Part shown: positions 15,167 through 60,497 of the stretch, one piece after another | Position numbering within the stretch: position 1 is the stretch's first letter | Layout of the letters: every line of letters begins with the position of its first letter | Assembly: GCA_965215365.1 (NCBI GenBank) | Contig: CBDCDS010000003.1 | Span: 896,001-960,000 of the forward strand | Direction of reading: 5' to 3' | DNA from: Gammaproteobacteria bacterium | GTDB lineage: Bacteria > Pseudomonadota > Gammaproteobacteria > Eutrophobiales > Eutrophobiaceae | DNA: 64,000 nucleotides | The notes under the pieces: model-generated | The model's database searches: none | What the model saw: the letters and a program-made list of their open reading frames with translations, nothing else | What the model was told of the DNA's origin: nothing | Position numbers and translations under genes: made by a program

Positions 15167-15207
15167 CAGGATAGACTGAGCCAGCGCTTCACTGAGAAGC
15201 TTTTTCC

Positions 15208-15741
15208 ATGACCGACGAAGAACTGAAAGCACTGGTTGCCGGCTTGGCCGTCGCGCAAGACCGTACTGATGCCCAGCTGGCGAAAAACGCCGCGCAGCTG
15301 GCGAAGACCGATGCCAAGCTGAACCGTCTGGCGGAAATGTACGGCGGTGTCGGCAACAGCCTAGGGGCGGCAGCCGAGGAGTTCTACCATAACAGCCTCA
15401 AGGCCAATCCGGTGCTGGCCGGGGTGCGCTTCGACTTCGTCGACCGGAACATCACCCGCAGCCGCGCCGGCCTTGAGGACGAGTTTGACCTGCTGTTAGT
15501 GAACGGTCGCGAAGTGTTTGTCGTGGAAGTGAAGTACAAGGCACATGAGAACGACTTGGCGCGCCTGCTGGACCAGAAGGCGCCCAACTTCCGGCGCTTA
15601 TTCCCGGAACACGCCGACCGCCGGCAGCGCTTGGCACTGGCCGCCTTCCACTTCCATGACGAGCTGAAGCAGGCGGCCTTAGCGCAGGGCGTGACCGTAC
15701 TGCAACGCAAGGGCGATGTCATCGAAACCCTTGCGGCCTAA
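15208..15741 (+). CDS. Heptad-repeat coiled-coil + PD-(D/E)XK nuclease-like protein (DUF3782-like), copy 1, 177 aa
   Basis: AKTDAQL-type heptads then AEEF...EFDLL...VEVK motif. Confidence 0.75.
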   Translation: MTDEELKALVAGLAVAQDRTDAQLAKNAAQLAKTDAKLNRLAEMYGGVGNSLGAAAEEFYHNSLKANPVLAGVRFDFVDRNITRSRAGLEDEFDLLLVNGREVFVVEVKYKAHENDLARLLDQKAPNFRRLFPEHADRRQRLALAAFHFHDELKQAALAQGVTVLQRKGDVIETLAA

Positions 15742-15839
15742 GCAAACTCCGAACAGCATACCGGTCGATGTAGCGCCGGAATCACACCTGCCCTTCAGGT
15801 CCCCAGCGAATAATTTGTCCTCTTCAAATCACTCTCATA

Positions 15840-16016
15840 AAGGACAGCGGCATCACCAACGACCCCAACGACTGGTCCGATGACCCGCGTTACATTCTTA
15901 ACCTGCTGCAAAAAGTGGTATGCGTAAGCATGGATACCATCAAAATCGTCAACAGCCTGCCCGAACTGGACCCGGTTACGGATTCCACAGGGTATAAGCG
16001 TGGCTTTCGTAGGTGA
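15840..16016 (+). pseudogene. 3' fragment of type ISP restriction-modification enzyme (copy 1)
   Basis: Translates KDSGITNDPNDWSDDPRYILNLLQKVVCVSMDTIKIVNSLPEL..., matching the conserved C-terminus of LlaGI/LlaBIII-type enzymes; no start codon. Confidence 0.8.
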
Positions 16017-16019
16017 AGC

Positions 16020-16078
16020 TAGCCCGCATATCTCACCAAGTGATGCGAAGATCGGGCCGGATTGGTTCTGCCTGCGGG
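16020..16078. mobile_element. MITE family B left-end remnant
   Basis: tagcccgcatatctcaccaagtgatgcgaagatcgggccggattggttctgcctgcggg matches start of 7570 element. Confidence 0.85.
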
Positions 16079-16151
16079 AGTAAAGGCCTTTTTATTTCAA
16101 GCCCGAGTGATGTAGAATGTCTCTCCTGAGCTGTTAACAGATGTAAACGTT

Positions 16152-16286
16152 ATGTATGCAGTGATAAAAACCGGTGGTAAACCGTGTGCGGCGCAGGCAG
16201 GGGGCACAGGGTGGAGCAGCCCGATGTCAGGGCAGCCTGTTGTTGGCGCCATCAATGCCGGCGCGAACGCCGACAGGATAGACTGA
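16152..16286 (+). pseudogene. rplU (L21) 5' fragment (first 10 codons) fused to unrelated sequence, copy 1
   Basis: ATG TAT GCA GTG ATA AAA ACC GGT GGT AAA C = MYAVIKTGGK, the L21 N-terminus; preceded by AT-rich region with TAGAAT. Confidence 0.75.
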
Positions 16287-16314
16287 GCCGCCGCTTCACT
16301 GAGAGGATTTTGCC

Positions 16315-57226: not shown

Positions 57227-57744
57227 TACGCCCTTGCCGCATGCGGCTGTAATTCCCTCAGCCGTAGCAGGTTTTCCCGGGAATGCCCGTGGCACAGGGC
57301 AACGGCCAGCGCGTCGGCGGCATCTGTCTCGGGCACCTGGTCCAGACACAACAATACCTTGACCATATATTGCACCTGGGTTTTGTCGGCATGGCCCTTG
57401 CCGGTGGTGGCCTGTTTGATCTGGTTGGCCGTGTATTCAAACACCGGCCGCTCATGTTCGGCGCAGGCGGTAATGGCGGCGCCCCGGGATTGCCCCAGTT
57501 TTAACGCGGAATCGGCATTGCGGTACATGAAGACTTTCTCCACGGCGCATTCGTCAGGCCGGAACTCACCGAGCAGCGCGCTGAGCTCGCGAAAAATCCG
57601 GCGCAGCTTGTCGGACAACTCCCCACCCGGAATTGTTATGCGTCCATGAATAACCGGCACGGCCCGGTTGCCGACCATGTCGATAATGCCGTAACCCGTT
57701 TGCCGGGAGCCGGGGTCGATGCCGAGAATCCTGATGTTACCCAC
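57226..57744 (-). CDS. ruvC: Crossover junction endodeoxyribonuclease RuvC
   Basis: ILGIDPGS, SALKLGQ.RG, DAADALAVA.CH. Confidence 0.97.
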   Translation of the reverse strand: MGNIRILGIDPGSRQTGYGIIDMVGNRAVPVIHGRITIPGGELSDKLRRIFRELSALLGEFRPDECAVEKVFMYRNADSALKLGQSRGAAITACAEHERPVFEYTANQIKQATTGKGHADKTQVQYMVKVLLCLDQVPETDAADALAVALCHGHSRENLLRLRELQPHAARA

Positions 57745-57752
57745 TTTCCTTA

Positions 57753-58499
57753 TCAGTCAAGTTGCGCCAGGATGTCATCGGCAATCTCTGCGTTGGAATA
57801 CACTTTTTGCACGTCATTGAGGTCTTCCAGTGTGTCCAGCAGGCGCATCATAGTCTGTGCCTCGTGCAGGTCCAGCGCCGGCCCGGTCGCCGCGCGCATG
57901 GTGACCTCTGCCGTCTCCGGCGGGTAACCGGCGGCGGCTAGGTGGTCCTTGACGTCCAGGAACTGTTCCGGCGTGGTTAACACATCTTGGGAACCGTCGT
58001 CATTGGCGGCGACATCCTCGGCGCCGGCCTCCAGCGCCGCTTCCAGCAACGCCTCCTCATCGACCGCGGCCGGGTAGGACAGCAACCCCACCTTGGTAAA
58101 CAGGTAGGCGACCGAGCCGTCGGTGCCCAGGTTGCCGCCGCACTTGGAAAAGGTATGGCGCACTTCGGCTACGGTGCGGTTGCGGTTGTCGGTCATGCAA
58201 TCGACCATCACCGCCACGCCGCCCGGGCCATAACCTTCATAACGCACCTCTTCTAGGCTCTCACCCTCGGCACCGCCGCCGCCTCGTTTTATGGCCCGCT
58301 CGATGGTGTCCTTGGGCATGTTGCCCGCCAGCGCGTTGTCAACAGCCGCGCGCAGGCGCGGGTTACCGTCCGGGTCAGGGCCGCCAAGCCGGGCGGAAAC
58401 CGTAATCTCCCGGATTAACTTGCTGAATAACTTGCCCCGCTTGGCGTCTTGCCGACCCTTGCGATGCTGAATATTCGCCCATTTACTGTGTCCTGCCAT
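57753..58499 (-). CDS. yebC: YebC/PmpR family protein
   Basis: [28 protein letters not shown]. Confidence 0.97.
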
Positions 58500-58589
58500 A
58501 CGTTATCAATTCCAGCTTCTCATTGGGACAATTCTATCACTTACAACCATCAAAAATAAAAAAATTGACAAAAAATCTGATGGTTTGTC

Positions 58590-59540
58590 TCATGGTTTCA
58601 TGCCCTCGAATAACGGGTGAGACAAGTCCAGTTTTTCACTGATTTTATGGTCCGGTACTGGTGATATAAGGTCAGGCTGGATATTGCCGATCTGTTGCCC
58701 GACATAACCAGCAAACGACTGCGAATTGTCACAACTGATACTATGTCGTCCTTCTTCAATGGCAACCCTTGTGGTAATGCCACTGCCGCCGAAAAAATCA
58801 AGCACGGTTGCTCCCGGATACGATAACGACCGAACAAGTCTCTGGATAACCTGCCTGGGCTTTTGCGTGGGATGTCCGACCCTCTCTTTTGAATTGCCGT
58901 TAAGTCTGCTTATCTTCCATACATTGGTAGGGTTTCTGCCTTTTTCAATGCTTTCCGGGTTAAGGCGTTTATCCTTTCTGTAAATGTCTTTGGTCTTTTC
59001 ATCATAGGGCTCTCTGACAGCATCCAGATCGAAGTAATACTCTTTCGACTTGGCAAACCAGGCTATCTCCTCATGCCTGTTTGCAAAAAACCGTTGCGCG
59101 CTCATACCGTTCGGGTAATTCCATATAATCAGATTTGCCAGCAGCATATTACTGGACTGCCTCAGGTAGTTGATGATTGATATAAGATCGCCGGTTCCGG
59201 CTTCTCCCTGGTATTGAAGGCCGCCGAATATAGCTATATTTCCAGTAGGCTTTAATACTCGTTCAGCTTCTTTCAGCCATGTCGCGGCCCAATCAATATA
59301 GTCGTCATGCTTGTCCCAGTCTGCCAGCATGATGTTGTAAGGCGGATCGCAGATTATCAGTTGTATGGATTCGTCCGGCAGCCTTGCCAGCAGATCGCAA
59401 CAGTCGGATATTTCCGTGATATGTCGGGTAACGCTGGGTATTTCAATTTTCAGGTTCCGTGTTGATGAGTGTGAGACACCATTTTTATTCATGGCGTTCA
59501 TAGCCTTGTAACCGGAATTTCTGTGAGATCTGTTAGGCAT
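58590..59540 (-). CDS. Type II N6-adenine methyltransferase, M.RsrI-like (beta class)
   Basis: [56 protein letters not shown] closely recall M.RsrI. Confidence 0.9.
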
Positions 59541-60372
59541 ACAGATCCTCCGACAGAACATCAAGCGAAGTTAAGGCGATCTCCCACAGTATCCTTGCCA
59601 TATCAGTTGCCGTCCATGCATCACTCTGAAAGTACAACGATGCAGCCTGTAACATCTGCATGTGATCATCCAGATCAACAAACACATTGCGACAATAATT
59701 GCGGTTAATCTCCATGCCATAACTGCCTGCCGATACCCTGTCAATCCTGTTCAAGTTGCCCGCATCGTGTGAGATTTTAACTTTTCTACCGTCAGCAGAA
59801 TCGACAAAAAAGGTTTCTGTCGCGAAGTTGGAACCCTGGAGAAAAACGACATAAGGGAAGTGGACTTCATCCAGCAGATAGTTGCGTAATTCCTGGATGT
59901 TCTTATGGACTCGTTCGATTGCATTACCGGCAACCATCAAATCCTTGTCTTTGTTCTTTCCCTGCTTTACGCCAGCGCGGATTTTTTCAACATCATTGCC
60001 CTGGTGCTTCGATTCGCTTACGAGTAAAACCCGATAATTCCCTGTTTTGTCTTGCACCTCAATAATTCCGCCATCGGGCTTAATGCTGGCCTTTTGTACA
60101 AACAGGACTTGTCCAAGATTGGGATCAATGGATGCAAGTTTATCGTTGATTGCCCGCTTTGAGACATCCGGCCTGTGCCGGAATGATAAACCAGGATAGC
60201 TGGCTTGTAATGCTTCCATAATTACGTTCATAACCTCCCTGATAGACAGGTCGTGCTTCTTTGCCTCATCCCCAAAAATACCAAGCGGCCCTCCTGCCAG
60301 CTGATGCTGCCTTTCAAGTCTGCGAGACTGCCCTTTCCCGCGTGCAGAATCGTCAAGACTGTCGCCGCCCAT
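59533..60372 (-). CDS. Type II restriction endonuclease, EcoRI/RsrI family (predicted GAATTC)
   Basis: IKPDGGI, ESKHQG, DLM.AGNAIER.HKN, HFPYV.FL.GSNF. Confidence 0.9.
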
Positions 60373-60402
60373 TTGATGCTCCTCATGGTTCCTCTGCCGA
60401 TT

Positions 60403-60431
60403 AAACTACTCCGATCCAGAATCGGAGTCAA
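60403..60431 (-). promoter_or_regulatory. Putative sigma70 promoter for RsrI-like operon with palindromic spacer
   Basis: Minus strand TTGACT, 17 nt, TAGTTT; actccgat-ccaga-atcggagt inverted repeat at 60408-60428. Confidence 0.55.
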
Positions 60432-60497
60432 GACGGGTCGGGCAAGGAGATTATAAGTCTGATCAATCGCCTGCTCAGCTTCCCTTAGCTTGAGGAT

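Follow-up and report, generated by a model that had tools for sequence, protein, structure and literature searches.

Restriction-modification (R-M) systems can enter bacterial genomes by 'insertion with long target duplication', an event that Furuta, Abe and Kobayashi (2010; PMC2853133) describe for systems of Types I-IV, most of them in competent species. Their account includes Type III cases and repeats of ~400 bp, cites earlier work on such insertions in Helicobacter pylori and, where these cases are presented, leaves their cause unexplained. Here, we describe what appears to be a further case in a gammaproteobacterium of the family Eutrophobiaceae (assembly GCA_965215365.1, hereafter G000; 2.73 Mb, 58% GC, 3 contigs). 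The DNA analyzed is a stretch of 64,000 nucleotides (the window; C3:896001-960000, C3 being contig CBDCDS010000003.1), in which a Type III R-M operon is found between two copies of the beginning of polA. Positions given without a contig are those of the window.

Long target duplications are also made by insertion sequences (ISs) of the IS1634/IS1549 family, for which De Palmenaer et al. (2008; PMC2266710) give variable lengths of 8-514 bp. In pneumococcus, Johnston et al. (2013; PMC3784515) describe merodiploidy that is triggered by transformation after insertion of a cassette into an essential gene. Finally, homology-facilitated illegitimate recombination, as described in PMC3240628, joins DNA with the help of a homologous anchor. 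A preliminary description of the window had proposed that this lineage may use the last of these routes to acquire defence genes, systematically duplicating host 5' segments from the ATG and lending host promoters to the cargo, as a distributed alternative to defence islands. We consider it reasonably probable that the window holds several independent insertions of accessory genes at intergenic positions that vary among congeners, and that the polA case is an insertion with long target duplication.

Results

A duplicated polA start around a Type III R-M operon

The repeat consists of the first 102 codons of polA (306 nt) and is present in the genome in exactly two copies, which are 100% identical (Table 1). 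Between them lie 5,965 nt (C3:924499-930463) with a GC content of 49%, against 58% for the genome, comprising mod, a PLD-like gene and res in the same orientation as polA (28495-34420, minus strand). Both components that define a Type III system, namely a Mod methyltransferase and a Res helicase-type ATPase/endonuclease, are encoded, and the PLD-like protein gives weak PADLOC matches to DrmC and ZacB. The polA 5' fragment followed by cargo that had been noticed in the preliminary description is therefore confirmed.

The upstream copy covers positions 2-98 of the Pfam 5_3_exonuc_N profile and runs into a tail of 22 codons that leaves the polA frame and, with its stop at 34398, overlaps the start of mod. 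Upstream of mod, the cassette keeps merely 43 nt of its own sequence. The ~40 nt that precede the truncated gene (polA') show homology to the DNA immediately before polA in a related genome, G018 (score 36, compared to a shuffle maximum of 24). At the other border, intact polA begins with an ATG (28498) that shares bases with the stop codon of res (ATGA; junction ...GGGGCGGGATGACC...). At both joins between cargo and host, at most 2-3 bases are shared.

The duplication is not an assembly artefact, because the 306-nt piece has a depth of 65 in the Logan contigs of one public run, where its neighbours have 31-37 and the contigs break at the repeat borders, and because a run from a second study yields the same contig pieces with no differences. 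None of the contigs examined spans the cassette. No integrase or transposase domain was found with Pfam in any of the three cargo open reading frames (ORFs), and there are no IS ends at the cargo borders: the inverted-repeat motif matches the window 7 times, compared to 5.5 expected, with none of the matches at the junctions. An explanation of the junctions by a known IS, a possibility raised in the preliminary description, finds no support in these scans.

We also compared the cassette with 80 Res loci that are more distantly related and come from named genomes, none of them of the window's own genus. The mod gene stands alongside res in 61 of these and a PLD-like homologue in 2, while polA adjoins res in none (0/80); a single locus has a polA-like match, 7 kb away. 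A scan of metagenomes for the exact 35-nt fragment-to-cargo junction gave no match, and a 23-nt degenerate motif of the res end was found in one contig, which has no BLAST similarity to the region.

Three states of the locus in related species

Related genomes show the locus without cassette, with the cassette only, and with the cassette and the duplicated gene start, a rare series of states. The first is represented by G005, which has ~81% nucleotide identity and is collinear with window positions 2060-61597, and by G003. Both have an empty site composed of polA, ~170 nt, a DUF2782 gene, 3 nt and mgtE, with one polA 5' end. In G018, the cassette, which is 87% identical along 5,953 nt, is located between DUF2782 and polA, with ~90 nt from res to the polA ATG and no self-repeat at the locus. 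G006, the closest species (94% amino acid identity in PolA), carries a cassette 96.8% identical to that of G000, and the junction at which the fragment ends (...GTTGGGG) and the cargo begins (TGTGAGCATC...) is the same in both. Downstream of its res gene come 88 nt, among them the native polA upstream region, and then polA. The G006 fragment is 90.8% identical, with indels, to that genome's own polA 5' end and is preceded by unrelated low-GC DNA.

An extra N-terminal PolA fragment was found only in G000 and G006 among 31 genomes searched with PolA, and a close Res (at least 89%) only in G000, G006 and G018 among 23 genomes of the genus. Taken at face value, the shared junction suggests that the duplication has a single origin, and the arrangement in G018 suggests that the cassette stood beside polA before the duplication arose. 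Because G006 has an 88-nt spacer and a decayed fragment and G018 has no duplication, the start of the repeat exactly at the ATG appears to be a secondary trait specific to G000. The comparison with sister genomes that the preliminary description had called for thus provides the empty sites, in G005 and G003, and at the same time shows that the duplication does not extend to G018 nor the ATG start to G006.

The cassette has diverged less than the core genes around it, with 96.8% versus ~92% identity in G006 and 87% versus 77-82% in G018, which fits interspecies exchange through homologous flanks.

Repeat-flanked cargo across the genome

G000 was scanned for comparable arrangements using self-megablast, a k-mer scan and local blastn. 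The local blastn search yielded 331 local direct pairs, 105 of them low-copy and 34 isolated; 13 isolated pairs with 75-82% identity, most of them long and paralogue-like, were left out without individual checks, and the gene context of 15 pairs was examined. Three pairs are 5'-end duplications of core genes, namely polA, xseA and tkt, each with a truncated copy, co-oriented cargo and the intact gene downstream. Relative to the start codon, the repeats span 0 to +305 at polA, -50 to +230 at xseA (281 nt, 98.6%) and -33 to +72 at tkt (~105 nt, 85%). Another three are 3'-end duplications: 83 nt of katG bracket AbiE genes and an IS piece, 48 nt of a motA/exbB-like gene bracket a BrnA-type antitoxin gene, and a duplicated end of an ABC ATPase gene brackets an AAA_22 ATPase gene. 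Three further pairs are target duplications around an IS (see below), and the remaining pairs examined concern accessory genes, whole genes or paralogues.

Cargo that is flanked by long host duplications and has no mobility gene inside therefore recurs genome-wide. Since 5' and 3' ends are represented by three cases each, it shows no 5' preference, and it obeys no ATG rule. This pattern is expected from random long duplications together with the survival of those products that keep one intact gene. The xseA event is specific to G000, as xseA adjoins guaB in G006, G005, G018 and G003. Because its cargo contains pieces of the neighbouring lipA and a helix-turn-helix (HTH) gene found beside xseA in G003, it resembles a partial duplication or rearrangement of local DNA rather than the clean insertion of foreign DNA.

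These results bear on the proposed 5'-directed acquisition route, which is partly supported and which we regard as unlikely. The further duplicated 5' ends that a genome-wide self-BLAST was expected to reveal do exist, at xseA and tkt, with the truncated ends upstream of co-oriented cargo as at polA; the junctions are free of IS ends, the cassette has kept little leader of its own, and comEC and dprA are present. However, the equal number of 3' ends removes the 5' bias, and the ATG start claimed for these duplications is confined to polA in G000. Moreover, three of the items originally listed in its favour have no duplication, the rplU case reduces to a 32-nt patch away from rplU, and the loci themselves are island-like hotspots, as shown below.

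A second explanation, which we consider quite unlikely, is that a resident IS1634-family transposase made the long duplications, either by acting in trans on the cargo or by inserting an IS whose interior was later replaced by cargo. The genome has four full copies of such an element (1,892 bp; NF033559, 356 bits), three of them with perfect target duplications of 175, 305 and 195 nt, which lie within the range known for the family, and the hicB insert, flanked by a 181-nt repeat, retains a 574-nt IS1634 fragment. At polA, in contrast, the insert has no IS1634 similarity and its ends differ from the terminal inverted repeats of the IS (CCCGACTTCGACGGT). The cassette is present at the same locus without any duplication in G018, and cassette and flanks are common to several species; the IS copies, by contrast, hardly differ from one another and are thus recent. 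In a wider version of the improbable portable-arm reading considered in the Discussion, the 50-300-nt duplications around IS1634-family copies and those around transposase-less cassettes may share one host pathway that does not depend on the enzymes of the elements.

Defence genes around polA and elsewhere in the window

A Pfam domain scan of 64 ORFs of the window shows a backbone mainly of core genes (gatBA, mreBCD-pbp2-rodA, his genes, tatBC, polA, mgtE, ptsI, rpoN, lpt genes, tol-pal, ruvABC, yebC and nadA) with accessory genes scattered between them. No integrase or transposase domain scores above threshold in any of these 64. The earlier statement that the window lacks an intact mobility gene holds in this sense, but such genes are close by: an IS481-like rve ORF lies 4.2 kb before the window start, and IS481-like and IS66 pieces lie ~10 kb past its end.

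The interval between polA and mgtE has the features of a defence island or hotspot and is variable in G000, G006 and G018. In G000, it contains three modules, namely the Type III R-M operon, an AbiEi gene with a dCTP-deaminase-like gene, and a Fic gene with a DUF2442 gene. In G006, it contains a Type III R-M system, an unknown 739-aa gene, IS elements, a MunI R-M system, a Fic gene and a GmrSD gene that is interrupted by an IS256-type element. The interval is empty in G005 and G003, and the AbiEi module accordingly has no counterpart at the matching position in these two genomes. The AbiEi-like gene is without an AbiEii partner, and the adjoining dCTP-deaminase-like gene is divergently oriented and exceeds the TIGR02274 cut-off.

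The Fic gene had been described as lying between direct repeats. These exist (49 nt; 37355-37403 and 38845-38893) and are pieces of a multi-copy element resembling a miniature inverted-repeat transposable element (MITE). Two high-copy MITE-like families, of ~160 nt and ~243 nt, occupy many intergenic spacers, and some copies are arranged as tandem arrays outside the window. In G006, a 490-nt direct repeat (95.5%) encloses the Fic gene; it is a duplication of the entire DUF2782 gene and a further long target duplication at the same hotspot.

The window also begins within another defence island, whose last gene is hsdR. The reported overlap between the hsdR end and the start of an esterase gene, at 1354, is real; esterase homology in G006 begins at 1351, and hsdR homology in G018 stops at 1337. 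Start-codon borders of islands, at this esterase and at yebC, were considered as a meaningful feature and rejected, as intergenic DNA at 81-88% identity is unalignable or replaced. Upstream (C3:882000-897999), the island holds HATPase_c_3 and SNF2 helicase genes, the IS481-like rve ORF, an AAA_21 and DUF4276 pair and hsdR, the latter with no hsdM or hsdS alongside. With a hotspot at polA-mgtE and an island at the window's edge, the idea of a distributed alternative to defence islands does not describe this region. The duplicated core-gene starts beside cargo can be explained by known processes and survivorship, and their neighbourhoods are ordinary variable defence hotspots.

Three other accessory insertions, for which no host duplication was found at the borders, are an array, a parDE pair and an RsrI-like R-M pair. 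The array consists of tandem copies of a gene with variable 21-nt (7-aa) repeats and a nuclease-like C-terminal part, from a family of ~177-212 aa with at least six more copies or pieces elsewhere in the genome, and G005 holds 73 nt in its place. A conserved promoter-like leader stands in front of every copy. The family has no match in Pfam, NCBIfam or PADLOC; a language-model search gave a resemblance to DUF3782/DUF8196 nuclease-like clusters, which we treat as a candidate lead. Two copies outside the window abut IS1634 fragments at their 3' ends.

It is in this array that an rplU 5' fragment followed by cargo had been claimed. The fragment is a patch that matches real rplU (C3:2514441-2514410) at 30 of 32 nt and is part of a ~110-nt insertion found in the leaders of two of the three copies in the array; a third patch, with slight mutations, is located in a copy of the gene at C3:1699338, and the leaders of the other copies are without it. 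Because the patch is 32 nt long, lies 1.6 Mb from rplU and belongs to a gene without a family match, this claim falls: it is no insertion at rplU, and the gene is not a recognised defence gene.

The parDE pair is co-oriented as described and lacks a flanking repeat. Its site is variable, with 10.3 kb of other DNA in G005 and 2.4 kb in G006. The RsrI-like pair is likewise real (the methyltransferase matches M.RsrI with E 8.8e-145, the endonuclease EcoRI with E 2e-88) and is also free of a host duplication; G005 has ~156 nt between nadA and yebC.

Beyond the window end, by ~10 kb, a 1.2-kb direct repeat (99.6%; C3:969918-971122 and 980020-981225), each copy of which contains a whole 245-aa ORF, brackets an 8.9-kb island with VapBC-like genes, an HTH-M78 gene, an IS481-like gene, IS66 pieces and an ion-channel gene.

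Table 1. Coordinates of the polA locus and of other features mentioned in the text (window positions unless a contig or genome is named).
Feature	Position	Strand	Details
Intact polA	25610..28498	-	962 aa; Pfam DNA_pol_A, 5_3_exonuc_N, DNA_pol_A_exo1
Repeat copy 2	28193..28498	-	first 306 nt of intact polA; identical to 34464-34769
res	28495..31464	-	Type III restriction subunit, 989 aa; PADLOC REase_III 1303 bits; Pfam ResIII and RE_endonuc
PLD-like gene	31461..32507	-	348 aa, mod-res interval; Pfam PLDc_2 E 7.7e-8
mod	32471..34420	-	Type III methyltransferase, 649 aa; PADLOC MTase_III 663.8 bits; Pfam N6_N4_Mtase
Truncated polA' ORF	34398..34769	-	ATG 34769; 102 polA codons (repeat copy 1, 34464-34769), then 22-codon tail
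Native polA upstream region, now preceding polA'	34770..34810	-	homology to G018 polA upstream
Second accessory module	35232..36774		AbiEi-like 35232-35888 (+), PADLOC AbiEi 295.6 bits; dCTP-deaminase-like 36109-36774 (-), TIGR02274 100.5 bits
Third accessory module	37327..39606	+	Fic-domain gene 37341-38825; DUF2442 gene
DUF2782 repeat copies in G006	L032 6852-7340 and 9159-9648
hsdR, 3' part	3..1376	+	last gene of defence island begun upstream of window
Array of three tandem copies of a multi-copy gene	15167..18188	+	period 1191/1212 nt; inserted relative to G005
Array gene family elsewhere	C3:765034, 1699151, 1925404, 1928051, 2294111
rplU-derived 32-nt patch	16151..16182	+	MYAVIKTGGK; leader of array copy 2
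Second rplU-derived patch	17342-17373		30/32 nt match real rplU
parD and parE	19591..20161	-	Pfam ParE_toxin, ParD_antitoxin; co-oriented
RsrI-like Type II R-M pair	58590..60372	-	between nadA and yebC
MITE-like copies	5445-5616, 7558-7816, 22505-22842, 50113-50263, 53309-53449

Discussion

How the locus may have arisen

The most likely cause of the polA duplication is illegitimate or ectopic recombination, from which only survivors with an intact gene would be recovered. Under this hypothesis, the cassette would initially have been located just upstream of polA, as it is in G018, and congeners would have exchanged it by homologous recombination via the conserved flanks. One illegitimate join at the level of microhomology (TG or less) would then have tied position +306 of polA to the cassette's left end, either during homology-anchored integration of incoming DNA or by unequal sister exchange. 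As polA is needed, only products with an intact downstream copy would survive, leaving the truncated 5' copy upstream of the cargo. The junction would later have been inherited or transferred, as its identity in G000 and G006 suggests, while gene conversion would have homogenised the two copies in G000 and the 87-88 nt between res and polA would have been lost there, creating the overlap between the res stop and the polA ATG. Deletion bias could account for the missing spacer. G000 is the smallest among the listed genomes of its genus with at least 90% completeness, the others having 2.8-5.0 Mb (rounded). The same survivorship logic explains the 5' duplications at xseA and tkt and the 3'-end duplications.

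As a consequence, the native polA promoter would read mod, the PLD-like gene and res through polA', and intact polA would be the last gene of the operon, giving a single predicted transcript of polA', mod, PLD-like gene, res and polA. An essential gene of replication and repair is apparently stripped of its own upstream region and placed directly behind a restriction gene and, if the predicted transcription holds, polA expression would be tied to that of a defence operon.

Several points weigh against this history. Its mechanistic steps are all deduced, and the succession of states among G018, G006 and G000 is tentative, calling for one or more additional deletions in G000 and for replacement of the upstream region in G006. 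Local alignment of the DNA before the G006 fragment with the native polA upstream region gives scores of 13-19, which are inside the shuffle range and not significant. The perfect identity of the repeat in G000 could mean a recent independent event, and the higher identity of the cassette could come from constraint and not from transfer. A consensus scan for promoters and terminators over 28000-37400 is at chance level (9 vs 9.2; 13 vs 9.4) and thus uninformative, and co-transcription is a prediction. Finally, competence is hypothetical: the genome encodes comEC (203 bits) and a dprA-like ORF, but 10 of 14 control genomes have the comEC family as well.

An improbable extension of the favoured recombination history is that polA' serves as a portable homology arm. 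The unit made of polA 1-306, mod, the PLD-like gene and res would exit as a circle via the repeats, enter congeners by a single RecA crossover at polA and land under the promoter of an essential gene, a form of mobility and anchoring that needs no transposase. If true, polA in its G000 form would be the last, translationally coupled gene of a restriction operon.

That the locus is the remnant of a site-specific integrative island, which was aimed at the polA 5' end, carried a surrogate 5' segment and has since lost its integrase, is very improbable: low-GC cargo between direct repeats, a G006 fragment of another sequence type than the resident polA (91%) and more foreign genes beyond that fragment would suit it, but neither a tyrosine or serine recombinase nor short att cores were found at the locus in G000, G006 or G018 (G006 having only IS transposases), the 306-nt repeat is coding sequence that is 100% identical and lacks a defined core, it is missing from G018, and polA adjoins res in none of the 80 distant loci.

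Comparison with described systems

Homology-facilitated illegitimate recombination is a plausible mechanism. The polA locus may resemble its products, which combine extended homology at one junction with 0-8 nt of microhomology at the other: polA itself could be the homologous anchor, and one join has minimal or no homology. Classical homology-facilitated illegitimate recombination, known originally from Acinetobacter, however, usually deletes recipient DNA and does not duplicate it. The sharing of at most 2-3 nt at both cargo-host joins would also be compatible with unequal exchange or tandem duplication.

The survivors described in pneumococcus (PMC3784515) similarly keep intact and disrupted copies of an essential gene by means of a duplication made by recombination. 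As reported there, these duplications measure 100-900 kb and are bordered by IS repeats, whereas the polA repeat is 306 nt, and the transformability of the G000 organism is hypothetical. With IS1634/IS1549 insertions, the locus shares the length range of its repeat, the family making duplications of 175-305 nt in G000 itself; unlike them, the polA cargo lacks both a transposase and terminal inverted repeats.

The closest likeness is to the R-M insertions of Furuta et al. All the features by which these are recognised were found at polA: R and M are both inside the insert, which at 5,965 nt is smaller than 20 kb; the repeat of 306 nt far exceeds 30 bp, is single-copy in the insert-free relatives G005 and G003 and is not multi-copy; and no mobility gene is linked to it. 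Because of this agreement, and as far as sequence comparison can tell, we assign the polA case to insertion with long target duplication, a kind of event already described. Beyond this likeness, the polA case appears to differ in that the duplication covers the first 102 codons of an essential gene, that the ATGA overlap joins the intact copy to the res end, and that three congeners hold three states of one locus. It is thus a well-supported new example with unusually informative sister states, and the three-state series could help to explain how R-M cassettes insert with long target duplications.

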